Shown here: piece after piece, positions 212 through 45,494 of the stretch
Layout of the letters: every line of letters begins with the position of its first letter
How positions within the stretch are numbered: the stretch's first letter is position 1
DNA from: Candidatus Latescibacterota bacterium
GTDB lineage: Bacteria; Latescibacterota; UBA2968; UBA8231
Reading direction: 5' to 3'
Assembly (NCBI GenBank): GCA_965248265.1
Contig: CBDFJF010000001.1
Coordinates: 64,001 to 128,000, forward strand
Length of the DNA stretch: 64,000 nucleotides
Notes under the pieces: generated by a model
The model's input: the letters and a program-made list of their open reading frames with translations, nothing else
What the model was told of the DNA's origin: nothing
The model's database searches: none
Program-made: the position numbers and the translations under genes

Positions 212-3200
212 CTAACCCCCGCTTTCCTCTTCTGTATCCGAGCCATCCCCAGGAGCCGGGGGCTCCTGAGGATCCTCTACCGTGATGATCACTTCGTCCG
301 GTGTGCTCTCGAGGCTGCCGTCGCTGACAACCAAGACGATGATGAACTCTCCAGTCGCGGAGGCGACGAAACTCGCCATCTCTGCGTCAGCCTGTTGCAG
401 TGCTATGCTCTCCGGGGCCTCCCAGCGATAGCTGACGATCTCGCCCAGAAAGGGATCCTCGCTTCCGGAACCATCCAGCTGCACGGTGTCCCCGAGTGCC
501 ACCGTCTGATCCGGACCGGCATCGGCAATCGGCTGTGCGTTCTGGAGAACGGCGATAATACGGATTCCGTCCGGCGAACTCGACGTACGGCCGTCGCTGA
601 CCACGAGGGAAAACTCATAGCGCCCGGAATCCGGAGCAACGAACGTGGCGGTCCCATCCTCCCCTGCCATGAGCTCGACTTCGCGGCCCGTCGTCTGTTC
701 CCAGAAGTAGATGATCTCGTCTCCGTCGGGATCGACGCTGCCACGGCCATCCAGCAACACCGGGGTTCCAGCGGCGACAACCTGATCCAGTCCAGCGTCG
801 GCGCTGGGTGCAGCCGGTCCCGGCCCCGGCGCCGTCACGGTGATGACGACGACTACGGGATCACTGCGAAAGACGCCATCGCCGACGGTCAGCGTGAACG
901 TGTACACATCCTCCTCGGTTGCCGTGAACTGAGGCTGTGCGATCGTTGGGTCGTCCAGTGCGACTTCGGCGGGAGCAATCCATTCGAACGTCAACTCGTC
1001 ACCGTCGGGGTCGCTGCTGGCGCTGCCGTCCAACTGCACGACGGTGCCGACCTCCACACTCTGACTGCCTGCCACCCTGGCGATCGGCGCTTCATTGAAG
1101 ATCCTGCCCGTGATGGTCACACGGTCGGGTTCACTGTTCGATTCGCCATCGTTGACGACGAGATCGAACACGTAGGTCCCGACCTCATCGACCAGAAATA
1201 TCGGTCGAACCCCGGCTGGATCAGAAAGCGACACCTCGGGACCCGTCGCCTGACTCCACGAATAGGTCAACGGATCTTCCTCTGGATCGCTGCTGTCGCC
1301 GCCATTCAATTGAGCTGAAAACCCGACCTCGATTTCCTGGTCGGACCCCGCCTCCGCCACGGGAGGTAGATTGATTTCCGTCGCGCGCACGATGACGGTG
1401 TCCGGCTCACTCTCGATTTGACCGTCACCGACAGTGAGCGTAAGCGTGAAGATGCCCTCCTCCAGTGCCGTGAACCGCGGCATCGCCGTGTCGGTTCCTG
1501 TCAGGTCGCCGGAGGGCCCAGATTGACTCCACGCGTAATCCAGATCATCGCCGTCGGGATCGCTGCTGGCGCTGCCATCCAGGGCGATGGTTGTCCCGAC
1601 AATGGCTTCGACGTCAGGGCCGGCAACAGCCGTCGGTACGCCGTTGACGACGAAATCGACGATCAGTGTGTCATTGGCCGTGTTCAGCTCTTCGATCGTC
1701 GAGGCCGCCGGCACCAGCATGATGCGCAACTGATGCTCTCCCCTCGTCGTTTGCCAAGGATCGGTGGTGTAGGTCGAGCTGCGCTGCACCCCGAGATCCA
1801 GGGCGTCAAGCTGATAGAGCGGGGAGTCACTCTGATCCAGAAAGACCACTAGACTGAAGCCGTTGGAAGCCAGGCTGCCGGCATTCGACACGGCAATGCG
1901 AAAGGCGACGGCTTCCCCCTCGTGGATCTGTGCGATCACGATACCGTCCTCATCCTCCGCCTGCAGCCCCCGGACCTGCAGGTCGGGGCGGTCACGTTCG
2001 GAGACAGTTACCGAGTGACTGGTCGAGTCGACGATGTCGGGAGTGGCCCCGAAAACCCAGAGTGTGATCTCGTAGACGCCTGGCTCTTCATACGTAAAAT
2101 TGGGAGGCGATTCCTCCTCGACCCGTTCCTCCGTCCCAAATGACCAGAGATAGGTATCGCCGTAGTCAGAACTGTTGGTCAAGGTCACCGTCAACGGCGC
2201 CTTGCCACCTTCAGGCTCGACGTTGAACGCAGCCATTGGGGCGGGACGCGGGACGGTAATGATCACTGAGACGGGCGCACTCTGCGCTGCCACTTCATCG
2301 ATAACGACGAAGACAAAGCGGAACTCGCCGTAGGTATCGGGAGTGAAGGTCGGAGCACTGCTGGTCGAATCCGACAGCAGATCGACCCGCTCGCCTCGCC
2401 AACGGTACTGCAACGCATCGGCATCCGCATCCACTCCCGAACCGCGCAGGCGCCCGTTGCGGCCAACCTCAACCTGCTCGGGCGCCTCGATAACGGAAGC
2501 CTGTGGCGCGGTATTGGGAATGATCGCGATCAAGGTGTCAGGGGTGCTGATGACGCCGGTTTCCGGGTCTTGGACCTGCAGGAGAAAAGCGTAGGTCCCC
2601 CTGCCTACCGTGCGACTGAAAGAGAGTTCACGGCCGTGGACGGTGTGATTGTCAGGGTTCGACGCGACTACAGCGGTGGAAGCGATTCCTGGGCCCTGCA
2701 GCTGCGACCAATGGTAGATGATCTCTCCCTCGGGACGTCCTCTGCTGAGATCCGCTCGCAGCAGCACACTGTCTTGCGTTGCTTGTGAGAACAGGGTATC
2801 TCGGCCGGCCCCGGTCCCGGCGACGGCCGTCAACTCGAATGCATGGAAGGTCACGGCCGCGCTGTTGATCATTCCAGTGCGATCGCGCGCCTCCACTCTG
2901 GCCGAGAAACCACCGACCGAGGTGACGACGACCTCCGTCGTCTTATCCGTCGTCCATTCCACCTCGAAGATTCCATCATCATCCAGATCCCAACGCACCC
3001 ACAGCGAATCTGTCCGGTCATGGATGTCGGTGACGGAAGCCTCCAGGCGAAAAACAGAATCAACCAATCCGACCTGCGGAGTAACTTGGGCGCTGAGAAT
3101 ATCGGGAGCGGTGTCGTCGACGCGCTGCAGGACCATCGTCACTTTGGCCACTTCGTCGGCTGTGATCTGGACGGTCGCATCCCCACGCCAGAGGATCTGG

Positions 3201-3526
3201 GCCGTCGGACCTTCGAGCCCGAGATCGACGTGACGCTCTCCCACGGGGATGCCCAGCACACGAGCCTCGATAACACCCCCATTGACGAACAGCAGGCTGT
3301 CGATCGTCGTCATGCCTTCGCCGGAGATTCGCAGTCTGGCGCCAGTGACGATGATACGGGCAGCTGGGGTGGTAGCACCCTGTGATGCCGGGCGGCTCGG
3401 CGCCACCGAAATCCGCAAGTCCAAGCCACCGGTCGCGCTCGGACCGGCAGAGGTTGAGCCGCCGTCGCAACCAAGCAATGCCGCCATGGCGAACAGCAGA
3501 GCAAACAGGGCTCGTGTGCCGATCAT
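212..3526 (-). CDS. Large surface lipoprotein with tandem PKD/REJ-like Ig repeats and a CARDB-like domain
   Basis: Lipobox LLGC. About six PxAxAGxDQxVxxGxxVxLDGSxSxDPDGDxLxYxW repeats, one classic PKD (YLWSFG...[11 protein letters not shown]) and PDLQV...ELNTAND (CARDB-like). Confidence 0.85.
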
Positions 3527-3542
3527 CGTTGGTCGCCGAGCA

Positions 3543-4526
3543 TCAAGGAACTACAACCTCGATCTCCACCCCACCCGTCGACGGCACCTGGTCTCCATCG
3601 GAGCTGGCCACCGCGATGCTGCCGGCCACACCCAATCCAAGCAGCAGCCACAACCACTTCCTGCTCCGGGACTGCTCTTCGGCAGTCATGGCCAGGAGAG
3701 GGTTGTCGGTCCCCGGCTCTCGTTCATCGAAAAGGAACATGAAATCCTCACTCGACGATGACGAAAACCAGGGCACCTGGTCAGTGGTGGTATTGGTGAC
3801 CAGAGCTCTGGCCGTGCGAAGAACCTCCGGCAACGTGCGCCCGGGAATGGCCATGCTTTTGAGAAGCATCTTCGTGTAAAGGCTGTTGCCCCCAGCAGGC
3901 GCTGCAACGTTGACGACGGTCCCCGGGCTCGTGGAGAATGCCACGAACACGCCATCGGATGATTCAACCCGCGCCAGACCGGTGGCGGAGGACGACAGCT
4001 TCCTGGCCCCCGGGTAGGGCCTGCCGGCTTCCAGAATGACGATGTTGATCCGATTCCCTGCCGTTTCCATCGTCGACACCAGCGCTCCGAGATCCACGGC
4101 CTCGAAAGCGGCCGCTGACTCGCTGTCGATGTTACTGCCGATGGGCACCAGATAGTTCCTGTTTGCGACCTGCACGGCGTAGCCGGCGTAGTAGAACAAC
4201 CCGGCACCGCCGCGCCGGAGGCGCTGGCGAAAATCGCCAATGGCATCCGTGATGCCGCGCTTGTCAGCGTCGAGGCGTTGAATAACCTGAAAACCGGAGG
4301 CCTTGAGAGCACGGTTCATGGCCAGAGCGTCATTCGTTGCGGTCGCGAGTGGGCGTTCGGTGTACACCCCATTGCCGATCACGAGAGCGACTCTTGGTTC
4401 GTCGAGAATCTCCATCGACCCCCCGCTCCTGGCTGACACAAATCCAGCCTGGCACACGGCAATCAGGACAAGGGTGGACGTCCTGGCAAAAGCGCGTCCA
4501 GTCGGGGATGTCGTTGATATCATCAT
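3543..4526 (-). CDS. Caspase-family (peptidase C14) domain protein, catalytic dyad absent, C-terminal TM/Gly-rich anchor
   Basis: RVALVIGNGVY, NDA, LFYYAGYA (canonical FYYAGHG), ILEAGR (canonical ILDACR), QVPW. Signal peptide and KWLWLLLGLGVAG tail. Confidence 0.85.
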   Translation of the reverse strand: MMISTTSPTGRAFARTSTLVLIAVCQAGFVSARSGGSMEILDEPRVALVIGNGVYTERPLATATNDALAMNRALKASGFQVIQRLDADKRGITDAIGDFRQRLRRGGAGLFYYAGYAVQVANRNYLVPIGSNIDSESAAAFEAVDLGALVSTMETAGNRINIVILEAGRPYPGARKLSSSATGLARVESSDGVFVAFSTSPGTVVNVAAPAGGNSLYTKMLLKSMAIPGRTLPEVLRTARALVTNTTTDQVPWFSSSSSEDFMFLFDEREPGTDNPLLAMTAEEQSRSRKWLWLLLGLGVAGSIAVASSDGDQVPSTGGVEIEVVVP

Positions 4527-7694: not shown

Positions 7695-8920
7695 CGCTGA
7701 AACTCGCCTTGCGTTCGCTGGGTCGGAGCCGGCGGCGCACCCTGCTTTCGGTACTGGGCGTCGGCGTGGGGTGCGCGATCGCCGTGTTCTCGACGGCCTT
7801 TATGCGCGGTGGCCGCGAGTTGCGGGTGCGGGCTATTTCCGAGAGTGGTTTCGGCCATGTTCGCCTGGCTCCCGCCACGTGGGAGCAGAATCGTGACAAT
7901 GACCTGCGCCTGCCGGAATGGAGCCGATTGCTGGCATCAGTCCGCGCCATCGAGGGCGTCGCCGTTGCGACCCCTCACGCCAGGGCGCAGGGGTTGTTGG
8001 CCTTCGGTACCCGTATTTCGGGAGTCGAGCTGCTCGGCGTCGATCCGCTCATGGAAGGTCGGGTAAATCGGCTGGTACGCGCACTTTCGAAAGGCCGCTA
8101 CTTGCGGCCCTCCGACACCGGATCCGTCGTGGTCGGACGCGCTCTGGTCGAGCGCCTCGACGTGGAACTCGGCGACGATCTGCTGCTCACCCTGTCCCGG
8201 GCCGACGGTGAGCTCGAATACTCCATGCTGCGCATCGTCGGCATCGTCGAAACCGGCAGTCGTGAGATCGATTCCTCGATCTGCCACGTCACGCTGGAGC
8301 AACTGGAACGGCTGACCGGCCTTCGGGGCGCCGCGGAGATTACGGTGGTAGCTGCTGATCCGCTGCGCCTCGACCAGATGGCACAGCAGCTGGCACAATC
8401 GATGCCTGCGAGCGCACAGGTGCTCACCTGGCGGCAAGTGCTGCCGGCCATGGGTGGTGATGCCGCCGCTGACAGGGCCTTCACCAATCTGTTCATCGGC
8501 ATCGTCATCCTCGTCGTCATTCTCGGAGTGACCAGCGCTCAATTGACGGCCGTCCTGGAGCGCCGCCGAGAGTTCGCAGTATTGAACGCTCTGGGCATGA
8601 AAGACATCCACATCGTGTGGCTGGTGTTGCTCGAGGCGGCAGCCATGGGGGCAGTGGGAACGTTGGTCGGACTCGCACTCGCCACTCCCCTCGTCTACCA
8701 CACAGCGACTGAGGGCATCGACTTCTCCGAGCTCATGAGTGGCGACGTCGCCGTAACGGGCGTGTTCTTCGACCCGATCATTTACTCAGATATGGGTCTG
8801 TGGATGCTGCCCTATGCCGGCTTCGTGGGCATGGCATCGGCCCTATGCGCGGCACTCTACCCGGCCTGGCTGGTCATGCGCCAGAATCCGGCCGCAGCCC
8901 TTGGTTACTCGAATGGATAG
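7691..8920 (+). CDS. ABC transporter permease, LolE/FtsX family (second copy)
   Basis: ATGA overlap with the previous stop. LALRSLGRSRRRT, AVLERRREFAVLNALG, ALYPAW. Confidence 0.9.
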   Translation: MTLKLALRSLGRSRRRTLLSVLGVGVGCAIAVFSTAFMRGGRELRVRAISESGFGHVRLAPATWEQNRDNDLRLPEWSRLLASVRAIEGVAVATPHARAQGLLAFGTRISGVELLGVDPLMEGRVNRLVRALSKGRYLRPSDTGSVVVGRALVERLDVELGDDLLLTLSRADGELEYSMLRIVGIVETGSREIDSSICHVTLEQLERLTGLRGAAEITVVAADPLRLDQMAQQLAQSMPASAQVLTWRQVLPAMGGDAAADRAFTNLFIGIVILVVILGVTSAQLTAVLERRREFAVLNALGMKDIHIVWLVLLEAAAMGAVGTLVGLALATPLVYHTATEGIDFSELMSGDVAVTGVFFDPIIYSDMGLWMLPYAGFVGMASALCAALYPAWLVMRQNPAAALGYSNG

Positions 8921-10887: not shown

Positions 10888-10964
10888 AGCGGGTCGCTAA
10901 AGCGGGTCGCTAAAGCGGGTCGCTAAAGCGGGTCGCTAAAGCGGGTCGCTAAAGCGGGCTGCTA
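10887..10964. repeat. 13-bp tandem repeat (AAGCGGGTCGCTA)x5 plus one variant copy
   Basis: Read directly: units start at 10887, 10900, 10913, 10926 and 10939, with variant AAGCGGGCTGCTA at 10952. Fills the whole gap between two convergent stop codons. Confidence 0.95.
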
Positions 10965-11753
10965 CTCCACGGCATAGAGTGAGTTCACGCAGCCGTCTAC
11001 CCAAACGGACTCCGAGTAGTGATTTACGGCAATTCCATCAGCGATCGGCGTAGGCTTGTTGACGATGAACTCGATCCAGTCCGGGCTGTTGAAAGCCGAA
11101 AAAGCCAACCGAAAGGCTTCGGGATTGCGCTCGACCGGCTGTGAAAAATCCGCGTAGACGACCGGCCCTGTGTCTGTTTGATAGAACACATGACGCTCAC
11201 TGACATTGATCGTCGTCACCGGATAGTCGATGACGATGCCATATCCATTCGACTCGTATTGGGTGCGGGCCGTTACCGGCAACGCGGCATCGACGGCCTC
11301 CACGACCTCCATCGGAGTGCCTAATTCGACTACCTCGATCGGCTTGGGCTTGATCTGATGCTTCCAGAAGAAGTCGGTGTCGATGAGCTGCCGTTCCGGC
11401 TGTTGCCCCAGCGACGGCGGGTCGAGCATGACGGTCTTGCCCTGCTGTGGCCAGCTCTTGACGATCAGCGAGTCCTTCTGTGACATGATGATGCGAAAAT
11501 CGGCATTGGGCTGGGTGAAGATGCCCAGTTCCCTGTCGGATCCCACTCGTTCCGTCTTGCAAGCTTCTGACAGGTAATATTCGGAGACACTTCCCTGTGG
11601 ATCGGTAAGCGTCAGATGGCAATCGACCCGTACTCGCGCGCGGTTGTGGACATTCTGTCGTAGATCGGAAACCGTTTTCGGCGGATGGGCTTCGAAGTCT
11701 GATTCGAAGAACAAGAAGGATCTGTCAAAATCGAGCATGGTAATTGTGACCAT
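10962..11753 (-). CDS. Hypothetical protein (263 aa)
   Basis: Long ORF with GGGAGA RBS upstream and plausible soluble composition; no motif recognised. Confidence 0.75.
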   Translation of the reverse strand: MVTITMLDFDRSFLFFESDFEAHPPKTVSDLRQNVHNRARVRVDCHLTLTDPQGSVSEYYLSEACKTERVGSDRELGIFTQPNADFRIIMSQKDSLIVKSWPQQGKTVMLDPPSLGQQPERQLIDTDFFWKHQIKPKPIEVVELGTPMEVVEAVDAALPVTARTQYESNGYGIVIDYPVTTINVSERHVFYQTDTGPVVYADFSQPVERNPEAFRLAFSAFNSPDWIEFIVNKPTPIADGIAVNHYSESVWVDGCVNSLYAVE

Positions 11754-11804: not shown

Positions 11805-12305
11805 TTACTCAAGCCTGATCGTCGTGTCTTTGTGGAACGTACGCCACCCCAGGCCGGCCCCCGCCGCTGAACCCAGGCCACCGGCGAGCACCACCCCGGC
11901 TGCGTCGACGCTACCGGTCAGGGCCAGCACGCCGGCAGTCAGCGCCCCGATGCCGATCGCCGTTACCGCCGACAACAGGACCTCCGTGATCCCTGCACGC
12001 AGGATGACCCGGTCAACCTCACGAGTGGACACCTGCATCGTGTCTCCCGAACTGCTGCTGTGCAGGACAAATCGATCCCCATGCAGGGTCCGAAGTCTGC
12101 CAACCTTGAACTCGCCGCTGCGCAATACCATGGTCATTTCACGATCAGCGAAACGACGCACCAACTTGCGGGCGCGAACATGACGTGCCTGAGACAACTC
12201 GTCGTCGCGACGGACGGAATCTGCGGCGGCGGACTCCGTGGCAAGAGCGGGCTCGCCGCTCAGGCATGTAAACGACAGGATGAGGTAGAAATAGAGTCGA
12301 TTCAT
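11805..12305 (-). CDS. Hypothetical exported protein with Sm/SH3-like module and Gly-zipper-like tail
   Basis: Signal peptide, LRSGEFKVGRL...VSTREVDRV, then Gly/Ala-rich hydrophobic helices. Confidence 0.7.
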   Translation of the reverse strand: MNRLYFYLILSFTCLSGEPALATESAAADSVRRDDELSQARHVRARKLVRRFADREMTMVLRSGEFKVGRLRTLHGDRFVLHSSSSGDTMQVSTREVDRVILRAGITEVLLSAVTAIGIGALTAGVLALTGSVDAAGVVLAGGLGSAAGAGLGWRTFHKDTTIRLE

Positions 12306-12310
12306 GGCTC

Positions 12311-13642
12311 TCAGAGCTCGTAAAATTCCCAGTAGAGGGTTATGAAAGGTTTTTGGAAATGCATCCCCAATCGCAGCGTCTCTGACACGGCCATGAGCAC
12401 GCCAAAGTCCATGTCCACTGGTCGGTAGCGACCACTGGGACTGTCGAAGGTGAACGGCTCACCGACGTCACCCAGGTAATCGTCCATCGCCTTTCCAAAA
12501 CTCAGGTACTTGTAGCCATTGTCGGCCCACAGCCGTCCTATCAGTTTGAGTCGTTTGGACAAATCGTAGTCCGCGGCCACCCAGACCCGGTACGGAAAGC
12601 GGAAATCGGAATCCCAGGTGAAGGACGAGTCTTTCAGGGCCGGTTTATCGAAGGCCATGCCGTTGGTCGAGAATCCCAGGTGCCACCCCCACTTGCCCCG
12701 GCCCGAACCCAGGGGTTGGCGGTGACTGAGGACGGTGTGGAAGGTCCAGTCGAATTGACGTGCATCTGGATCCTCGAGTACGTCTTCGATCTCCATCGCA
12801 TCGGGTGAGATCTCGTCGAAGCGCTGGTCATCGGAAACGATTACTCCATCTCGGCCCCTGCCGAGCCAATGGCTGTACTGCCGGTAGCGAGAGATCATGC
12901 GGTGGTCGCGAAAGAGCCCAAGCCCGACGGCAAGCGCGGTTTCCGACGCGCCTTGCGCCCGCTGAAAGACGGCGTAACGCAGTTTCACGTTCAGATCGCC
13001 GTTGAAATCGGGTCCGATGTTGGTGAAGACGTTGAAGCGTTCCGAAAAACCGTACCCCAGACTCAACCCGCTTATGTAGAAGGTGTGCGGACGCAACAGA
13101 AACGCTGTCGGATCGGTAAAGGTACCGGTCAAGGTCGCCTCCCCCTGGTAAAAACGCTTCTTCTCTTCTGCCCACGAAATGCGCTTGCCGCCATAGTAGC
13201 GATGCATCTCGCGAATGTCCTCCTTGGAGACGACGACATCGCCGTAGGCGCTGCGAACGACCACCTCCTGAGAATCCTCCTTCAGGACGGGACCGTCGTA
13301 CCCGGTATCATCCTTCTTAACCACTTCTACCGTCTCCTCCAGGATCGCCATGGCCGGTATCCGCAGGGTCCCGTCGAGGGTCTCGATCGTGCACACGTTG
13401 ACGCCGTCGATGTCGACGATCTTGCCAGTGACGGCGTTGCCGTCACGTAGGTGGAAGCGCTTGGACATCCCTATGTGCAGGGCCCGCGCAGCGCTTGAGG
13501 ACGCCGGTGACACCAGCTCCAGAGAGTCCGCTTCAGGTGAGATGGCTCCGGCCCAGGTTGGCCCGGCCACGAGCAAAACAATGATCGTTATGATCGGTAT
13601 CATCGTTATCATGGTAGTGGTGTACGAAGCGATCGCTTTCAT
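12311..13642 (-). CDS. Hypothetical outer-membrane protein with two N-terminal Sm-like repeats
   Basis: GGAGG RBS and signal peptide. LRDGNAVTGKIV and KKDDTGYDGPVL repeats, followed by an amphipathic beta-rich region ending ITLYWEFYEL. Confidence 0.75.
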   Translation of the reverse strand: MKAIASYTTTMITMIPIITIIVLLVAGPTWAGAISPEADSLELVSPASSSAARALHIGMSKRFHLRDGNAVTGKIVDIDGVNVCTIETLDGTLRIPAMAILEETVEVVKKDDTGYDGPVLKEDSQEVVVRSAYGDVVVSKEDIREMHRYYGGKRISWAEEKKRFYQGEATLTGTFTDPTAFLLRPHTFYISGLSLGYGFSERFNVFTNIGPDFNGDLNVKLRYAVFQRAQGASETALAVGLGLFRDHRMISRYRQYSHWLGRGRDGVIVSDDQRFDEISPDAMEIEDVLEDPDARQFDWTFHTVLSHRQPLGSGRGKWGWHLGFSTNGMAFDKPALKDSSFTWDSDFRFPYRVWVAADYDLSKRLKLIGRLWADNGYKYLSFGKAMDDYLGDVGEPFTFDSPSGRYRPVDMDFGVLMAVSETLRLGMHFQKPFITLYWEFYEL

Positions 13643-13708: not shown

Positions 13709-14833
13709 TCATTCGGACCGGTGACCGGTTGCCTTGACCTCTCCCCACGAAGTGGATGCGACAGCCGTTGACTGACCATTGACCCGCAGCGTCGAGACCA
13801 CGCCGGCATGATCGGACGGCCACAGATCGGATGCCGTGCGGTTATCGGAGTCCGCACCTACGACGCTGGCCGTTTCGACTGAGCTGATCATCTCTGAGCG
13901 GGGACCGCCGAACAGGATGAGATCGATGCGCCGGTTGAAGGACACGGTCGGATTCAGCAGATCGTCGTCGTGACAACAGGTGTACCCCGCGGCCTCATCC
14001 TCTCCAGCCTCCTTCCATGCGTCGCGGAAGCCGGCCTGCATCATCATGCCGTAGGTATCGGTTGTACTGCCGTCGGCAGCCGAGTTGAAGTCACCCAGCA
14101 GGACGACCGGATGCGGTGAGGCCGCGGCGATTTCCAGCAATTGAGCTGCTTGTGCCATCTGCACCGGTGCGGCGGCTCCGCCGCGCTCTAGATGCGTGCT
14201 GACGAAGCGAAAGGTCGCGCCATCCGCGATTACATCGGCCGCCGCCCAACCTCGACGTAGCGTGATGGGGGGGCCCTCTTCGCCGCCGATGGGCAAGGTT
14301 AGATTGATGTCGTAATTGCCGGCCTCTCCGCCCTGAACACTCATGTCTGATCGGACCAGGATCACGTCGCGGTCGGTGAGTCGGATATCGTCCCCCGTGG
14401 AATCGAGCATCTCGACATCAGTCCCGATCATGGTCGAGACCTCATGATAGGAGGCACCACGAGCCTCCAACTCGTCGAGCAACAGGGCGAGGAAGTCGAC
14501 GGCGACCTCGGTGGCCTGCTCGGGATTCCCCTCAAGGAAATCCCCCGGTGACTGAATGCGATACAATGCCACTTCCTGCAGCCCTACGACGTGTGGATTG
14601 GCGTCGGCGATCTCGGTGGCAATCACCCGGGCTCGCTGAGAGAAATCGGTAGCCTGAATGGCCGACCACATCTCCGTCACCAGCGGTGGGACCTCAGCCA
14701 TGGACTGCGCCGCCAGTAGCGGATTGATCGGCGCCCCTATATAGATGTTGCGAGTCATCACCTTCATGTCTTTCGCTCCAACCACCACTGTGGCGACTGC
14801 GAGTGTCAATGGGATCAGGATCTTCCTCTTCAT
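13709..14833 (-). CDS. Secreted endonuclease/exonuclease/phosphatase (EEP) family protein
   Basis: MKRK signal peptide after a GGAGG RBS. VMTRNI, VGLQEV, STHLE, LLGDFN, RIDLI and PSDHAGV motifs; C-terminal TAVASTSWGEVK. Confidence 0.92.
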   Translation of the reverse strand: MKRKILIPLTLAVATVVVGAKDMKVMTRNIYIGAPINPLLAAQSMAEVPPLVTEMWSAIQATDFSQRARVIATEIADANPHVVGLQEVALYRIQSPGDFLEGNPEQATEVAVDFLALLLDELEARGASYHEVSTMIGTDVEMLDSTGDDIRLTDRDVILVRSDMSVQGGEAGNYDINLTLPIGGEEGPPITLRRGWAAADVIADGATFRFVSTHLERGGAAAPVQMAQAAQLLEIAAASPHPVVLLGDFNSAADGSTTDTYGMMMQAGFRDAWKEAGEDEAAGYTCCHDDDLLNPTVSFNRRIDLILFGGPRSEMISSVETASVVGADSDNRTASDLWPSDHAGVVSTLRVNGQSTAVASTSWGEVKATGHRSE

Positions 14834-14915
14834 CGGAGCCCTCCGCGTGTGAGTTCGAATGACGGGGTTGCGCATGACACGTTGTCGGCGCCAACCCGGT
14901 CGCACCGCACACCTG

Positions 14916-14931
14916 GCAAAGTCGGTACCAG
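14916..14931 (-). promoter_or_regulatory. Sigma54 -24/-12 promoter for the EEP operon
   Basis: Minus strand reads CTGGTACCGACTTTGC (GG-N10-GC), about 80 bp upstream of ATG 14833. Confidence 0.75.
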
Positions 14932-14960
14932 TAGCCGTTTCGAAATCAGCCTGCCGTCCA

Positions 14961-14973
14961 TAACCTGTTAATT
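14961..14973 (-). promoter_or_regulatory. IHF-like site (1 mismatch)
   Basis: Minus strand AATTAACAGGTTA versus consensus WATCAANNNNTTR, 30 bp upstream of the left sigma54 promoter. Confidence 0.45.
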
Positions 14974-15035
14974 TTATGTCGGTTACATATGAAACTATCT
15001 CCCCTTTCAGAGCTTTCGTGTCCACGAAAATCGAT

Positions 15036-15199
15036 TGCGCATATATGCGCGAACGTGCGTAACTTCTGCACACTTACCCAAATATGGCTTGCAATCAGAG
15101 ACACCGAGGGTATATTGACGTTGCTAATCTTGCGTAATAGTGCGCTAATTTGCGTAATCATTGCGCGACCATGCATCCTGAGTTGCATTCGAGATTGCG
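15036..15199 (+). repeat. Two helically phased arrays of TGC(G) direct repeats (putative enhancer/UAS)
   Basis: TGC(G) cores at 15036, 15046, 15056, 15067 and at 15122, 15131, 15141, 15151, 15162, 15172, 15184, 15196. Best unit TTGCGTAAT. Confidence 0.7.
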
Positions 15200-15221
15200 A
15201 TTCACATCCTATGAACCGTAA

Positions 15222-15234
15222 AATCAAGAAGTTA
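15222..15234 (+). promoter_or_regulatory. IHF binding site
   Basis: AATCAAGAAGTTA is an exact match to WATCAANNNNTTR, lying between the repeat array and the right sigma54 promoter. Confidence 0.65.
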
Positions 15235-15261
15235 CGCATCTGATCGAACGCTCGCTGTCAG

Positions 15262-15277
15262 TTGGTACATTCTTTGC
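15262..15277 (+). promoter_or_regulatory. Sigma54 -24/-12 promoter for the regulator gene
   Basis: TTGGTACATTCTTTGC (GG-N10-GC), 70 bp upstream of ATG 15347. Confidence 0.75.
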
Positions 15278-15346
15278 GTAACCACTGACAGAAGGCCAAA
15301 ACGCGCAATTCGATCGACAGGAATTCTAACTTGTGAGAGGTATACG

Positions 15347-17350
15347 ATGACTCAGTTGGCAACAAACCCTGCGAGTCCGATGCGGGCGAGAGGCCCAGAA
15401 CCTGCAGTCCTCAAGAGATTGCGCCGCGCAGTACAACGCGACCGTCTCATCGCCGACATAGCCGCCATGGCGCCGCAGGACCAGGCCCTGGTGCTGACCA
15501 ATCGGCTCGCTCAGACCACCGTCCGCTACCTCACCTCCATCGATCAGATTACCGGCCAACGACTGGCGGAGGAACTGCGCTCGATCACCTCCCCGAGTGA
15601 GTACGATATGCTGCTGGAGGATCGGACCTACACCTTCTTTCACGTAGTTCAGTTTCTCTATGAGTACGCGAAACACTACGCCACGGTCTCTGACCGCCGC
15701 TTCTTCTGCTTCGGCATGGGGCGTGGAGGTGGTGGTATTGAAGTTGCCCCCGACACCGAAGTGGTCAGCTTGCTGGTGCTGTTGATGAGCGCCTTGCCCT
15801 CGGATTCCGACAGCCACAACCTCAATCTCGTCATGGAACAGCTGGGGCCGACCATTCTTCAGACGGTCCTGACCCCCTCCCTGTTCGACGTCGAGGTCAA
15901 CACCATCGGCAACTCCGGTCTGCGGTTGACCTTGCGTTATTCTGATCGACGCCAGTTGGAAGCCCGTCTTGGCGAATACGGCCTTGAGGGTGACACCGGG
16001 CAGCTTTTCCTAAACACTGCCATGCATGTTCAAGGCCTGGTGCAGCTGGCCTTTGACACCTTCGTCCAGAACGCCGACGGGGCGATACGTACCGAGGGGC
16101 TCATTCAGGATCTGTCAACGGACGAGTCCGCGCAGATCGAGAGGACCTGCACCTGCCATTGGCAGATTGAGTGGGACTTGGATGTGGTACTGCGACGCGA
16201 GGCTGAGCCGCAACAGGTCCTGCAGCTGGGCAGCGTGATATTCCAGGCCCTGCACCGCAAGGACCTGCAGTACTACCATGAGCGCATCAAAACACTCGAG
16301 ATGCAGGTCCAGGAGCTGTCACAAGATGGCCGCTTTCACGAGATGATCGGCCGCAGCTCGAGAATGAGACAGCTGTACCAGCTGGTCGATCAGGTAGCCA
16401 CTTCGGACCAGACGGTTCTCATTCGCGGCGAGTCCGGCACCGGCAAAGAGCTTACCGCCCGGGCCCTGCACCAGAGTAGCCCGCGTCGCGACCTTCCGTT
16501 TGTCGCCGTCAATTGCGCTGCGTTTTCTGAAAATCTGCTGGAAAGCGAGCTCTTTGGGCACGAAAAGGGGGCCTTCACCGGCGCCATTCAAACCAAACCC
16601 GGACGCTTCGAGCGTGCGGACGGAGGCACCTTGTTTCTCGACGAGGTTGGCGACATCCCGCTCATCACGCAGGTCAAGCTGCTGCGCGTGATCGAAGACC
16701 AAACCTTCGAGCGTGTCGGTGGAACGGAGAGCATTCGTGTCGATGTCCGCATCGTCGGGGCGACCAACCGCAATCTCGAGGAGCTTATCGCGAGCGGCCA
16801 GTTCAGAGAGGATTTCTTCTTCAGACTGCACGTGCTGCCGATCGAACTGCCTTCACTGCGCGAACACGCCGAGGACATCCCGGAACTTGCCCAGCACTTT
16901 CTCGAGCAAATCGCCACGCGCTCCAAAAAGGAGGTGACCGGACTGTCCCGCGGTGCCGTCGAACGGCTCGTCAGTTACCCGTGGCCCGGCAACATTCGCG
17001 AACTCAGAAACGTCATCGAACGCGCCGTGGCGGTTTATGCCAGGGAATCAACGCTGAGCGAAAGTGACATATCCCGGTCGTTGGGCATGCACGAACGAGC
17101 AGCGCCAGTAGTACCACTGAACCTCAGACAACGCCGTCAGGTAGAGTTCATGAACGGCTTCCCGTCAGGCTCCACCATCGAGGACATTCTCGAGCATCTC
17201 ATCCACGCGCAGACTCCAGGCAGCTCCCGGCGCAGCCTGCAGAACGACCTACGCAAGCTTTCCGACATGGGCTACGTCGTCTGGCTCAAGGACGGCAGCG
17301 CTCGAACCTACACGACAACGGAGCTGGGACGGCAGCTGTCCCAATCGTAA
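15347..17350 (+). CDS. Sigma54-dependent enhancer-binding transcriptional activator with non-REC N-terminal domain and C-terminal winged helix
   Basis: [49 protein letters not shown]-terminus LNLRQ...[18 protein letters not shown]...GSARTY. Confidence 0.95.
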
Positions 17351-17443: not shown

Positions 17444-18457
17444 ATGGCCACCCAGGCGACGGTAGACGTCAGATCATTCATAGTCGGAGCGTTGGTCGGA
17501 GCCGTCGTCCTGTTCGCCGTTGGAGCGTGGTTCTGGGACCGGCAGGAAGCACCGTTACGGTGGAGTACGGCTGAGACCGAACGAGACCGCGCCGAGGAGG
17601 TTACTCCGAACTCGAATGTGTTTGATTACGCCGCCCAGTTCGAGCAGCAGCTGAAGGTCGAGGATGCGTTGCAGAAAAAGGCTCAAACCATGCTCGATGG
17701 GATTATCGGAAAGAATCGATCCTTCGTGAGGGTCAACGTCAGCATGGACTTCAGCCGCCGTACGATGGAGGCCAGCTCGGTGGAACCGGGAACCACCCAG
17801 ACCGTGCTGAGTGAGGAGACCTCTGAGAAGAATTCAGCCGAAACAGGTACCGAAGAGAGCGTCGCGCGCAGCTACGGCGTCAACCGCTTGATTGAAGACA
17901 CAACTGGATCCATCGGCACGATCACCAGACTCACTATGGCGCTGTCAGTCGACATGACCAAGGTCATTCACGACATCGAGACCAATGAGTTTCGCGAGGT
18001 CGACCGTCAACAGGAGGAGATCGACCAGCTGGAGCAACTCGTGAAGCAGTCCGTTGGTTTCGACGAGACGCGTGGTGACGAGAGCACCATTTTCGCACTG
18101 CGCTTCGACAAATCCCAGGAGATTCAGGCAAAGGAAACTGCCGTAACAAAGGAGCGGCGCGGGTTTTGGGTCAACGTTGCCAAGATCGCTGCCATACTCA
18201 TCGCCCTGCTGGTACTGCGACGGATGTGGCGAAGCAGTGATTCCAACGATATCAGGAGATACTTGGCGGACAAAGACAGTCAAGCCGCGTTGTTGATCGC
18301 CGCCGGTGTCTTTCTGTGTGCCCACGCCCTCCACTTGTGGGGCGACTCTCTGAGCTGGGGTGAACTCGGCGCACTGCCCGGACTGTTCTTTCTACTGCTG
18401 GGAGTATCCAGAGTCTGCCGATGCTGCTCATCGCCGGAGGCACCACAGTCAGCGTGA
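17444..18457 (+). CDS. Membrane protein containing only the FliF C-terminal ring-building (RBM3/beta-collar) domain
   Basis: QTMLDGIIGKNRSFVRVNVSMDFS...VLSEE...YGVNRLIE...GTITRLTMALSVD...LEQLVKQSVGFDETRGD matches the FliF C-domain; N- and C-terminal TM helices. Confidence 0.8.
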   Translation: MATQATVDVRSFIVGALVGAVVLFAVGAWFWDRQEAPLRWSTAETERDRAEEVTPNSNVFDYAAQFEQQLKVEDALQKKAQTMLDGIIGKNRSFVRVNVSMDFSRRTMEASSVEPGTTQTVLSEETSEKNSAETGTEESVARSYGVNRLIEDTTGSIGTITRLTMALSVDMTKVIHDIETNEFREVDRQQEEIDQLEQLVKQSVGFDETRGDESTIFALRFDKSQEIQAKETAVTKERRGFWVNVAKIAAILIALLVLRRMWRSSDSNDIRRYLADKDSQAALLIAAGVFLCAHALHLWGDSLSWGELGALPGLFFLLLGVSRVCRCCSSPEAPQSA

Positions 18458-28875: not shown

Positions 28876-29380
28876 ATGGCGAAAAAGAGAGTCAACTTGG
28901 GGCCCGATCGCACGCCTCGCCATCAGTGACATAGAGCTGGAAACCCACCCGAAATTCATACAGATCCTGCCCGAGCGTGAAATCGTCTTGCTGCTGGCAT
29001 TCGAGGTCAACTCGACCAACATGTCAGGAAGGATGAGCCTCTGCTACCCCTTCCTGACGATTCAATCACTGCTTCCGCTGATGAATCGACACGGCTATAC
29101 GCGGCAGACCGATCTATCTGATGACGAACTCAAACTCGAAAACCGTCTGCGGCTTGGACCGGCACAGCTGCAAGCTTCGGCGCAGATCGGCAGTGTGGAA
29201 TTGACTGTGGAAGATGCCGGCAACCTGCGAGTCGGCGACGTCATTCGTTCGGGCACACGGACCTCCGACCCGGTGCCTGTCTTGATCGAAGGACAGCCGG
29301 CGTTCCTGGGTAGGCCCTTCGCCGCCGACGACGGCACGCAGATGATCAAGATTGCCGGAGACATGCCGGTGGGCAGCTAG
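28876..29380 (+). pseudogene. fliM: fliM relic (C-terminal part only, out of frame with its ATG)
   Basis: GGAGG-ATG MAKKR, then in the +1 frame ESTWGPIARLAISDIELETHPKFIQILPEREIVLLLAFEV...SGRMSLCYPF...LRVGDVI (end of FliM middle domain plus SpoA domain). Confidence 0.8.
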
Positions 29381-43405: not shown

Positions 43406-44128
43406 ATGCTCGAGATTATCGGTCTGAGTAAACACTTCGGCGACGTGAGAGCCGTCAACGATCTCAACCTGACCATCAACCCAGGTGAGATATTCACCAT
43501 GCTTGGAGCCAACGGGGCCGGGAAGACGACGACCCTGATGGTGTCGCTGGGGTTCACCGAGCCCACATCGGGCACCGTCAGGATCTGTGGCATCGACGTA
43601 ATGGAAGACCCCCTGGAAGCGAAGCGGCACGTGGCGTACGTATCAGAAAACGTGATGCTGTACGGGAATTTTACTGCAAGACAGAACCTGGATTTCTTCA
43701 CCAAACTGGGTGGCCGCAAGGACGCGAGCGATGAAGACTACGAGCAGGCCATGGGGCGAGTCGGCCTGCAACGAGAGGCCTATCACCGCCGCGTCAAGGG
43801 ATTCTCCAAGGGGATGCGCCAGAAACTCGGCATTGCCATCGCCATCATGAAGGATGCGGAAGTCATTCTACTGGACGAGCCCACCTCCGGACTCGACCCC
43901 AAGTCGGGCGCTGAGTTCCTCCAACTTCTTGCTGAACTGCGCGCCGAGAACAAGGCCATCTGGATGACGACTCACGATATCTTTCGGGCCAAGGCCGTGG
44001 CTGACCGGGTCGGAATCATGACGGAAGGTTCGCTGGTCAGGATTCTCACCAGGGACGAACTGGAGGAAGCGGATCTCGAGAAGATCTACATCGACTACGT
44101 CAGCCAGCCGGCTGACCAGCTCGCTTGA
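43406..44128 (+). CDS. ABC transporter ATP-binding protein (ABC-2/CcmA-like)
   Basis: GANGAGKTT, FSKGMRQK, LLDEPTSGLDP, TTHD. Confidence 0.93.
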   Translation: MLEIIGLSKHFGDVRAVNDLNLTINPGEIFTMLGANGAGKTTTLMVSLGFTEPTSGTVRICGIDVMEDPLEAKRHVAYVSENVMLYGNFTARQNLDFFTKLGGRKDASDEDYEQAMGRVGLQREAYHRRVKGFSKGMRQKLGIAIAIMKDAEVILLDEPTSGLDPKSGAEFLQLLAELRAENKAIWMTTHDIFRAKAVADRVGIMTEGSLVRILTRDELEEADLEKIYIDYVSQPADQLA

Positions 44129-45494
44129 ACCACACTAATTCATCCGCCATGCGCTACCTCTTCGCCACCGCCCCATTACTGCTCGCGCCCCTGATTGCAC
44201 CCAACGCCGCGGCCGAGCCAGTGACCATCACCCTCGATCGCTCGATCGCGGCGGCCGCCGAACACAATCGCGAACTGATCCAGGCACGTACCCGTGTCGA
44301 AGAGGTGCAGCGCGGCGACCGCATCATCGTTCGTTCACGGTACATGCCACACTTGAGCGTCACCACGACCTACGACGTCGAGGCCAGTGCCAATACACCG
44401 AGCGGCAAAACCGAAGAGGAATTCGGCGGCCGCGTGGAGTACTCCCAGCGCTTATTCGAGTTTGGGCCGAATGCGACTCAGGAAATCGGCCTGCGCTCCG
44501 ACCTGCGCCAGGCTCTCTTCGCCTACCAGGACAAGCTGCACGAGGTGCAGGCCCGGGTATGGCAGCTGTTCCAACTCGTTCTCCTACAGGAGGAGCAGAT
44601 TCAGCTGCGCCGCGACTCACGGGACAGATTCATGTCAACGCTGGAGCGCCAACAAGCCCGTTTCGACAAGCGATTGGCCTCAGAGGAGGATCAGCTGAAC
44701 GCTGAGCTCAACGTTCTCAACGAAGACCTCGCCATCAACAGACTCGTGCGACAACAGTTCAACAACAAGATGGAGCTGCTCAAGCTCACCGGCCGGCCGG
44801 CACCCAGGTGGAGCTCGAAGGGAAGTCCGTCCCTTTTCCCGTTGATCAGGAGGAGGCCGTCGCCATCGCGCTGGGACGGGACGTCGGACTTGCCATTCGA
44901 GAAGAAGAGCTGAACGAACAGCGACGCGCGCTGGCAGAGGTCAATTGGGAATACAGTCCGGATCTGTCGGTGCGTGCCGGGGTTGAGGATGGCCGTGCGG
45001 ATGCCGAGATCAACGTCGATCGCCGGGCCGGAACCTGGGGCCTGGATGTCGCGTCAGGATATGACCTGAAGGAAAAGGATGATGCTGATCCCCAACCCGG
45101 TGACCCTCAGTGGTCCGCCGAGATCGAAGCGCGCATCCCCATCTTCGAGGGCGGCTCCAGGATCGGCCAAAAACGTCGCGAGCAAGCCAGGCTCGAACGC
45201 ATCATGGAGGAAATTCGCGACCTGCGTGCCGGTGTTGATTTGGACGTACGCCAGGCGTTTCAGTCGATGCTCGAAGCCGAGGTGCAACAACGGATTCAGG
45301 AGAAACGCGTCTTTATCGCCCGTCGCCGGCTTGACATCAATCAGTACCTCAAGGATAAGGGCCGCGCTGACGAGGCCAAACTCGAGCAAGTCCGTGACCA
45401 GTTTTTTGGCGAGCAGGACGACCTTTTCGACGACCGGGTAAACTACATCAACCGGCAAGCTGAGCTACGCCGCCTTATGGGGTTCGTGGAGTAA
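44125..45494 (+). pseudogene. TolC-family outer-membrane efflux protein, split by a frameshift at (CCGG)3, 44789-44800
   Basis: ORF 44125-44913 (TLDRSIAAAAEHNREL, RYMPHLS) continues in another frame as ORF 44808-45494 (IPIFEGG, LDVRQAF, AELRRLMG). Confidence 0.8.

Follow-up and report, generated by a model that had tools for sequence, protein, structure and literature searches.

How are two genes that are transcribed away from each other controlled when one of them encodes a transcriptional activator, and does that activator also control itself? The question is raised by a spacer of 513 bp (14834-15346) in a 64,000-nucleotide stretch of the genome of a Candidatus Latescibacterota bacterium (contig CBDFJF010000001.1, positions 64,001 to 128,000; hereafter the window, meaning this whole stretch). 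The spacer separates a minus-strand gene for a predicted secreted EEP-family hydrolase from a plus-strand gene for a one-component activator of sigma-54 RNA polymerase, a bacterial enhancer-binding protein (bEBP). We propose that it is a divergent, enhancer-dependent control region run by the adjacent activator and that it includes a promoter, P(+), by which the activator would boost its own gene; taken as a whole, this explanation seems to us somewhat likelier than even. The sequence comparisons described here give good support to sigma-54 control in both directions by the neighbouring activator, and self-activation via P(+), for which a single sequence speaks, is plausible. Coordinates of all features are collected in Table 1.

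Promoters recognised by sigma-54 have GG and GC dinucleotides exactly 10 nt apart in a TGGCAC-N5-TTGC-like context, and their transcripts begin about 12 nt downstream of the GC. Two sites in the spacer, P(-) directed toward the EEP gene and P(+) directed toward the activator gene, fit TGGYAC-N5-TTGC exactly, with one mismatch each to TGGCAC, and both read TGGTAC-N4-TTTGC. They are the only two matches to TGGYAC-N5-TTGC in the 64-kb window, and they face outward. Dinucleotide shuffles of the 513-bp spacer, in which composition and, as far as dinucleotides go, TTGC richness are preserved, gave a mean of 0.0018 matches and never two (0/5000), and in shuffles of the whole window the mean was 0.24 matches, with two or more in 1 of 100. 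Both promoter matches are far beyond chance, and we take both promoters to be active. The first-pass annotation of this DNA had put promoter elements with the GGTAC variant at these same two places, and had pointed out that the right -12 element copies a repeat unit. The -12 element of P(+) is indeed TTGCGTAA, a unit of the repeat arrays described below; the window holds three copies (15130, 15150 and 15274), all in the spacer.

Each promoter is accompanied by an IHF-type site that lies between the array units and the promoter, as at IHF-assisted promoters; the right site matches the consensus exactly and the left one with a single mismatch, again where the first-pass annotation had seen them. 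The exact site is one of two such matches in the window, and at least one arises in 2.6% of 1000 spacer shuffles. Counting sites with at most one mismatch, the spacer has two against 0.5 expected. In a MAFFT alignment the left and right IHF blocks agree at 14/18 positions, a TAAAAT tract included, and both blocks are oriented alike relative to their own promoter and stand at mirrored distances from it. One related locus (L001, see below) has an exact IHF match at the corresponding position, as read from its upstream sequence. Presumably both spacer sites are used by IHF. When the complete left and right modules were aligned, their score was reached by 2/500 shuffles. We nevertheless set aside, as weakly supported, a derivation of the right module from the left by clean inverted duplication, the likeness lying mainly in the IHF and promoter blocks.

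Repeat arrays were found by chaining same-strand occurrences of TGC[AG] spaced 9-12 bp, an array being defined as at least four units. Arrays 1 and 2 are the only ones in the window; 100 shuffles contained a mean of 0.05, none with six units or more. Since the spacing is about one helical turn, all array units lie on one face of the DNA. Counted from the -24 GG, array 1 lies 106-146 bp upstream of P(-) and array 2 lies 59-134 bp upstream of P(+). Neither the mirror-symmetric central array nor the single shared enhancer of the first-pass annotation holds up: both arrays run on the plus strand as blocks of direct repeats, one of four and one of seven units, and mirror symmetry is confined to the promoter and IHF modules. 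Over their first 28 nt, 95 bp apart, the two arrays are 71% identical; stretching this likeness to 95 nt was unconvincing (26/500 shuffles reach the score). The spacer also contains inverted copies of its units. A perfect 12-bp inverted repeat, TGCGTAACTTCT and AGAAGTTACGCA, joins 15056-15067 to 15227-15238 across 159 nt, and its right arm is overlapped by the right IHF site, which therefore holds an inverted array unit. The unit at 15299-15309 pairs with 15160-15167 as a perfect 8-bp inverted repeat, and an 8-bp inverted pair of TGCGTAAC units stands on both sides of the -24 element of P(+).

The gene to the right of the spacer encodes, as first annotated, a sigma-54 activator. Its product matches Sigma54_activat (PF00158, E 3.3e-71, residues 333-500) followed by the AAA lid, and carries the Walker A motif GESGTGKE (361-368), GAFTGA (408-413) and DEVG at 432, counted as Walker B. 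By its AAA+ core it is an intact bEBP, although one with a non-canonical DNA-binding (D) domain. NCBIfam models matched the central domain only (~266-619), and none of the equivalog cut-offs (NifA, NtrC, NorR, PrdR, RtcR, ZraR and others) was reached among the best 25 of 29 matches, NifA for instance scoring 372 against a cut-off of 528.85. The Fis-type helix-turn-helix (HTH; Pfam HTH_8) gave no match in the activator even at E up to 10, and the C-terminus showed only sub-threshold matches to HxlR and HTH_11. An AlphaFold2 model of the last 91 aa, built with a 37-row alignment, is a winged helix with elements in the order helix-helix-helix-hairpin-helix and a predicted local distance difference test score (pLDDT) of 86.5. 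Foldseek likened it to winged helices of the MarR, MepR, SlyA, PadR, PerR, Fur and ArsR types (probability 1.00, query TM-score ~0.6-0.73). Residues S51, R53, Q56, D58 and L59, at and in the third helix, the predicted recognition helix, are invariant in 37 family members; this parallels the invariant TTGC core of the repeat units and fits a DNA motif common to the family. A winged helix together with direct repeats spaced 9-12 bp could point to an OmpR/PhoB-like mode of binding; the best structural matches, however, are to MarR, PadR and Fur and not to OmpR. The domain is rare: among 1.84 billion representatives, an exhaustive phmmer search picked up only 20 proteins with it, many of them fragments, and a word-based search queried with the C-terminal 83 aa yielded no more than six.

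The N-terminal half of the activator has no receiver domain, and its 318 aa are without a Pfam match at E up to 10. The model of residues 1-318 (encoded by 15347-16300) has a pLDDT of 90.5. Attempts to name this sensor were abandoned: the ESM Atlas gave no usable match, and Foldseek gave weak H-NOX-like matches (E ~4e-3, target TM-score 0.45-0.64) and a few TRAPP/Bet3 chains. His99, His227, Cys121 and Cys270 do not vary in the 10-row alignment A1 mentioned below, a hint of a metal or cofactor site. There is no kinase gene near the activator among the window open reading frames (ORFs) scanned.

A search with the N-terminal 330 aa of the activator returned 40 proteins, generally of ~640-690 aa and alike in architecture. 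Four are close relatives (P0001-P0004, at 98, 93, 80 and 78% identity) and the others have 41-57% identity; where named, they come from Latescibacteria or Latescibacterota. Exceptions in architecture are P0029, in which the sensor is fused to a SpoIIE phosphatase that replaces the AAA+ core, and a protein of 1065 aa with an added PF07494 domain. The domain-only alignment A1 led to six loci, L001-L006, in species-representative genomes, all at 44-47% identity. L006, with only residues 18-96 matched, was left out of the counts, and the start codons of L001-L005 were set from the reading frames. The L006 match lies in an ORF of 195 aa and looks like a truncated copy. L005 is titled as a metagenome-assembled genome (MAG) of Gemmatimonas phototrophica; in activator and array, however, it is like the Latescibacterota loci, most of all L003, and the bin or the label may be wrong.

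Four of the five loci (L001, L002, L004 and L005) have an opposite-strand sigma-54 match with at most one mismatch at 141-221 nt upstream of the bEBP start, and each of these outward promoters faces a gene whose product has a signal peptide, as read from the sequence. L003 has a co-directional aminotransferase gene upstream of its bEBP gene and no outward sigma-54 promoter. A single phased array of at least four units was found per 12-13 kb in L002, L003 and L004, in each case directly upstream of the bEBP gene and on its strand; L005 has three units at exact 10-bp spacing upstream of the gene and L001 an irregular set of units that includes TTGCGCAA-type palindromes. The distance from array to promoter is 105-146 bp in L004 and ~104-142 bp in L001, against 106-146 bp for array 1 of the window. 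A position weight matrix (PWM) made from the 14 units of the relatives (threshold 9) placed 6 of its 43 window matches in the spacer, which is 0.8% of the window; the reverse matrix, made from the window units, had 8 of 43 matches in the 150 bp that precede the start codons of the relatives.

The divergent genes themselves vary, from a TonB-dependent receptor (L002) to a lipoprotein with LPP20- and CsgG-like genes (L004) and unknowns (L001, L005). Conservation of the target genes was rejected after a blastp comparison of seven window proteins with all ORFs of L001-L006, which gave no match at E up to 1e-3, and apart from the bEBP no regulator gene is common to the loci. Since the relatives keep phased units while their divergent genes differ, the array travels with the activator and not with the targets, and on these sequence comparisons it is an element specific to the activator family. 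Conservation in related genomes, which the first-pass annotation had suggested checking, thus extends to the array and to the outward P(-)-type promoter and, in these distant relatives, stops short of P(+). Two further observations concern single loci. Downstream of its bEBP gene, L002 has a second sigma-54 match, TGGTACGCCCTTTGC (TGGTAC-N4-TTTGC), with a TTGCGCAA palindrome ~120 bp upstream (8081-8219); it precedes genes for a formyl-transferase and an AMP-binding enzyme and may be a second target of the L002 activator. L001 has an ISL3-family transposase gene (3169-4446) on the side of the divergent gene, behind two unannotated ORFs, and its neighbourhood may be rearranged.

In the mechanism that we favour, the helically phased TTGCR(Y) units are probably the binding sites for the winged helix of the activator. 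With the arrays on a single DNA face, activator would be concentrated locally and its AAA+ ring would form more readily; the two IHF-type sites would bend the DNA so that the ring reaches sigma-54 RNA polymerase at both outward promoters. P(-) would turn on a four-gene operon headed by the secreted EEP hydrolase. Because the distance from array 1 to P(-) is close to that in L004 and L001, and array 2 is near P(+), each promoter may have an enhancer block of its own, array 1 for P(-) and array 2 for P(+). The half made up of array, bend and P(-) is conserved in relatives and for that reason regarded as the ancestral arrangement of the activator family. P(+) mirrors the left module, stands in a longer spacer and has no counterpart in distant relatives, which is why we read it as a lineage-specific addition, a mirrored bend-promoter module with its own array through which the activator would boost its own gene. 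We infer both the identity of the array-binding protein and the sign of the autoregulation. Without its activator a sigma-54 promoter stays silent and cannot by itself initiate synthesis of that activator; a basal promoter is therefore required as well, and a weak one, probably overlapping the array, would prime the loop. Of the positive feedback that the first-pass annotation had proposed, the P(+) match beyond chance holds up, while distant relatives offer no match with at most one mismatch and the loop could not run without the basal promoter. Bistability and capping of the loop are speculation.

Several observations weigh against this explanation. A counterpart of P(+) on the plus strand with at most one mismatch was found in 0/5 distant relatives. 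Plus-strand candidates with two mismatches occur in L004 (35 nt from the start codon, with TTTGCGTA) and in L002, where ~0.3 are expected by chance. The arrays of these relatives lie only ~40-115 bp from the bEBP start codon, a position that would fit a sigma-70-type promoter with self-repression better. Part of the P(+) match comes free of charge from the local enrichment of TTGC, because its -12 element is itself an array unit, and over the mirrored modules MAFFT finds 46/97 columns identical. The left IHF-like site is statistically weak by itself (9.7% of shuffles reach two sites with at most one mismatch), and the exact site on the right may be an activator site, an IHF site or both. The two sigma-70-like hexamer pairs that could serve as the basal promoter are not above chance (two against 0.7 +/- 0.9 in shuffles). 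Among the 57 window ORFs scanned there is no Sigma54 factor (rpoN) domain, and no ihf gene was seen, ORFs below 100 aa, the size of an IHF subunit, being mostly unscanned; the presence of rpoN in the genome is implied by the intact GAFTGA activator. Some of these points can be assembled into a serious though unlikely alternative, namely that only P(-) works, that P(+) is a by-product of TTGCGTAA happening to fall 10 nt from a GG, and that the activator gene is read from a housekeeping promoter overlapping the array and represses itself. The absence of a P(+) counterpart and the closeness of the relatives' arrays to the start codon speak for it, as do the sigma-70-like hexamers at 15089-15116 and 15195-15224, which take array units as their -35 element, and the activator-type units around and just downstream of P(+) (15231-15238, 15275-15282 and 15299-15309). 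It also has a precedent in DVU2106 at orp of D. vulgaris, described as negatively autoregulated from a sigma-70 promoter overlapped by a site of the enhancer-binding protein (PMC3897727). Against it stand the low expectation for a full match in the spacer given above, the TGGTAC-N4-TTTGC shared by P(+), P(-) and the second promoter of L002, the exact IHF consensus at the mirrored position, and a spacer of 513 bp where the relatives have 127-380 bp, as if a module had been added.

It is quite improbable, in our view, that the TTGCR arrays are bound by another regulator or a nucleoid protein, with the activator using sites elsewhere or acting from solution. A winged-helix fold alone does not specify a DNA target and some bEBPs lack DNA binding altogether; yet phased units follow the bEBP family, on the strand of its gene, in the window and in L002-L005 despite differing neighbours, L001 being irregular. 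The parallel between invariant recognition-helix residues and invariant TTGC core, and the lack of any further regulator gene common to the loci, argue in the same direction. That the whole pattern is an artefact of chance or composition and that sigma-54 is not used here comes close to negligible. The spacer is the sole markedly AT-rich stretch nearby, with 46-49% G+C against 55-67% in the flanks, and the lack of rpoN and ihf among the window ORFs scanned would suit such a view; however, shuffles that keep composition still reject chance, the adjoining gene is an intact sigma-54 activator, and related loci carry corresponding elements. Going beyond the divergent control region proposed above, one might see here a class of bEBP nearly confined to Latescibacterota-like MAGs, in which the Fis HTH has been swapped for a winged helix. 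Its members would bind head-to-tail on a phased TTGCR array, with about one unit per protomer, so that the enhancer templates the AAA+ ring, and a mirrored IHF-promoter module with a partly duplicated array would have turned self-repression into self-activation, possibly bistable. This would perhaps be its first description; we regard the extension as rather unlikely.

Table 1. Features of the spacer and of the genes on either side (window coordinates; the dot marks a feature without strand).
Feature	Coordinates	Strand	Remarks
Three ORFs downstream of the EEP gene	12311-13642 (443 aa), 11805-12305 (166 aa), 10962-11753 (263 aa)	-	Gaps of 66, 5 and 51 nt
EEP-family hydrolase, predicted secreted, 374 aa	13709..14833	-	First gene behind P(-); Pfam Exo_endo_phos, E 1.9e-12
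Isolated repeat unit GTTGCGCATGA	14867..14877	+	In predicted 5' leader of EEP transcript; scores 8.7 with relatives-only PWM
P(-), TGGTACCGACTTTGC	14916..14930	-	TGGTAC-N5-TTGC, toward EEP operon; predicted start near 14904
IHF-like site AATTAACAGGTTA	14961..14973	-	One mismatch; 31 bp upstream of P(-)
Array 1	15035..15075	+	Four units TGC[AG] at 15036/15046/15056/15067; first two form a 24-bp imperfect palindrome
Sigma-70-like pair TTGCAA-16-TATATT	15089..15116	+	Candidate basal promoter for activator gene; 9/12 positions fit
Array 2	15121..15205	+	Seven units TGC[AG] at 15131/15141/15151/15162/15172/15184/15196, plus off-consensus TTGCT unit at 15121
Second sigma-70-like pair TTGCGA-18-TAAAAT	15195..15224	+	From hexamer scan; -35 is the last array unit
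IHF consensus, exact, WATCAANNNNTTR / AATCAAGAAGTTA	15222..15234	+	29 bp upstream of P(+)
Imperfect inverted repeat, 14 nt, 86%	15255..15291	.	From symmetry search; arms 9 nt apart, brackets P(+) core
P(+), TGGTACATTCTTTGC	15263..15277	+	TGGTAC-N5-TTGC, toward activator gene; predicted start near 15289
Inverted repeat unit ATTGCGCGTTT	15299..15309	-	Just downstream of predicted P(+) start; PWM score 12.6
One-component sigma-54 activator (bEBP), 667 aa	15347..17350	+	Sensor 1-320, AAA+ core 333-584, C-terminal winged helix ~593-667

The gene to the left of the spacer is, as first annotated, that of an EEP hydrolase, the Pfam match being joined by a signal-peptide-like N-terminus. Its start was set at 14833 on the grounds of this N-terminus, a preceding GGAGGG ribosome-binding site and a full-length homologue, P0062 (374 aa, 93% identity, 100% coverage). 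With the three same-strand genes downstream it probably forms one operon, judging from their arrangement. The products of 443, 166 and 263 aa have no match in Pfam or NCBIfam, and those of 443 and 166 aa have hydrophobic, signal-like N-termini. Intrinsic terminators were found neither behind the activator gene nor behind the last gene on the minus strand. Another EEP homologue, P0074 (55% identity), and a member of the activator family, P0031 (45%), come from one JGI contig of 142,101 bp, and the pairing of EEP and activator may thus recur elsewhere.

The spacer itself was treated as non-coding, its ORFs at 14946-15239 on the minus strand and 14989-15243 on the plus strand having no Pfam match and 46-49% G+C. 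An Rfam scan of 14600-15600 at E up to 1 gave no match, so no known RNA element accounts for the spacer. A structured leader in the predicted 5' leader of the activator transcript (15289-15360) was rejected because folding was no better than in shuffles (z 0.98). The imperfect repeat that brackets the P(+) core may serve another factor as an operator or may have arisen by chance; no palindrome like it was seen by eye in the printed upstream regions of the relatives.

Elsewhere in the window, a protein of 337 aa (17444-18457) matches only the C-terminal part of FliF/YscJ and one of 130 aa (28988-29380) is FliN-C-like; both are isolated parts of flagellar or type III machinery, and no further flagellar genes were seen in the window. 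Two overlapping ORFs of 262 and 228 aa (44125-45494), with one OEP (TolC-like) repeat each, look like an outer-membrane efflux gene that a frameshift or sequencing error has divided in two. A protein of 1104 aa with multiple PKD domains (212-4526) adjoins caspase-family (Peptidase_C14) and cohesin-domain proteins.

How much of this is new can be judged from known systems. At glnAp1/glnAp2, sites for NtrC overlap and repress a sigma-70 promoter and activate a downstream sigma-54 promoter of the activator's own operon. The logic is like that proposed here for the basal promoter and P(+), but the glnA system is unidirectional and two-component and has palindromic sites. Palindromic sites are also used by ZraR, which carries a Fis-type HTH. 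Two-component response regulators of this kind differ from the one-component activator of the window, with its unnamed 320-aa sensor, its winged helix and its arrays of four and seven phased direct repeats. The comparisons that follow draw on parts of the cited papers. In E. coli and Salmonella, ZraR (HydG) acts at divergent sigma-54 promoters for zraP, which encodes a periplasmic protein, and for its own zraSR operon (PMC4987338), and the spacer between zraP and zraS is listed as an RpoN site (PMC8743547). There one activator serves, and here one activator would serve, two divergent sigma-54 promoters, one of them for the activator's own gene or operon, and in our spacer the corresponding layout, two outward sigma-54 promoters with one heading the activator gene, was found at the level of the sequence.

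Divergent sigma-54 promoters under a single enhancer-binding protein, DVU2106 (OrpR), are also described for orp1/orp2 of D. vulgaris, with functional IHF sites between the activator sites and the promoters (PMC3897727), the same order as in the window. Unlike in our reading, DVU2106 has its own sigma-70 promoter, represses itself and uses palindromic sites, according to the part of that paper drawn on here. DVUA0100 of D. vulgaris (type III secretion) lies in one of two divergent sigma-54 operons with a motif in their common spacer, and DVU0151, a one-component protein divergent from a sigma-54 promoter, has a long N-terminal region of unknown kind and, in place of the Fis HTH, a predicted winged helix (PMC4641369). 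Both are comparative-genomic predictions from another phylum, likened to our activator by description only, and DVU0151 has GAFSEA where the window activator has GAFTGA. SoxR of B. thuringiensis uses one site to activate a pair of opposed sigma-54 units and is also its own repressor (PMC4941409). Nla28 of M. xanthus acts on its own sigma-54-type operon promoter through tandem imperfect direct repeats, often clustered (bioRxiv 10.1101/2021.11.28.470282). It is a response regulator whose 8-bp half-sites, on average 25 bp apart, are read as dimer sites, and the part of the preprint considered here has neither a run phased at 10-11 bp nor a divergent partner promoter.

A literature search for Latescibacteria and sigma-54 gave no paper naming the phylum among the matches listed. 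The first-pass annotation had pointed out that bEBP genes are usually sigma-70-driven, a premise that does not make an activator gene behind a sigma-54 promoter novel; ZraR (PMC4987338) and DVUA0100 (PMC4641369), as far as the parts of those papers considered here go, anticipate this. The architecture of divergent sigma-54 promoters, IHF bends and a self-driving activator is already known, and as a regulatory idea it adds little. Targets are secreted or envelope proteins in every locus, which fits the proposal, taken from part of its source, that sigma-54 controls the cell exterior (PMC3162934). The locus stands apart by joining three things, an uncharacterised sensor, a D domain of a rare winged-helix type and long phased arrays of direct repeats; its activator gene also appears to be driven differently from those of the relatives. 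The locus offers a testable case from an uncultured phylum, with an enhancer of up to eleven same-face direct repeats and not paired palindromes. If the proposed binding is true, bEBPs would have a second mode of DNA recognition and ring nucleation, and the relatives without P(+) and the window locus would form a before-and-after pair for an evolutionary change from self-repression to self-activation.

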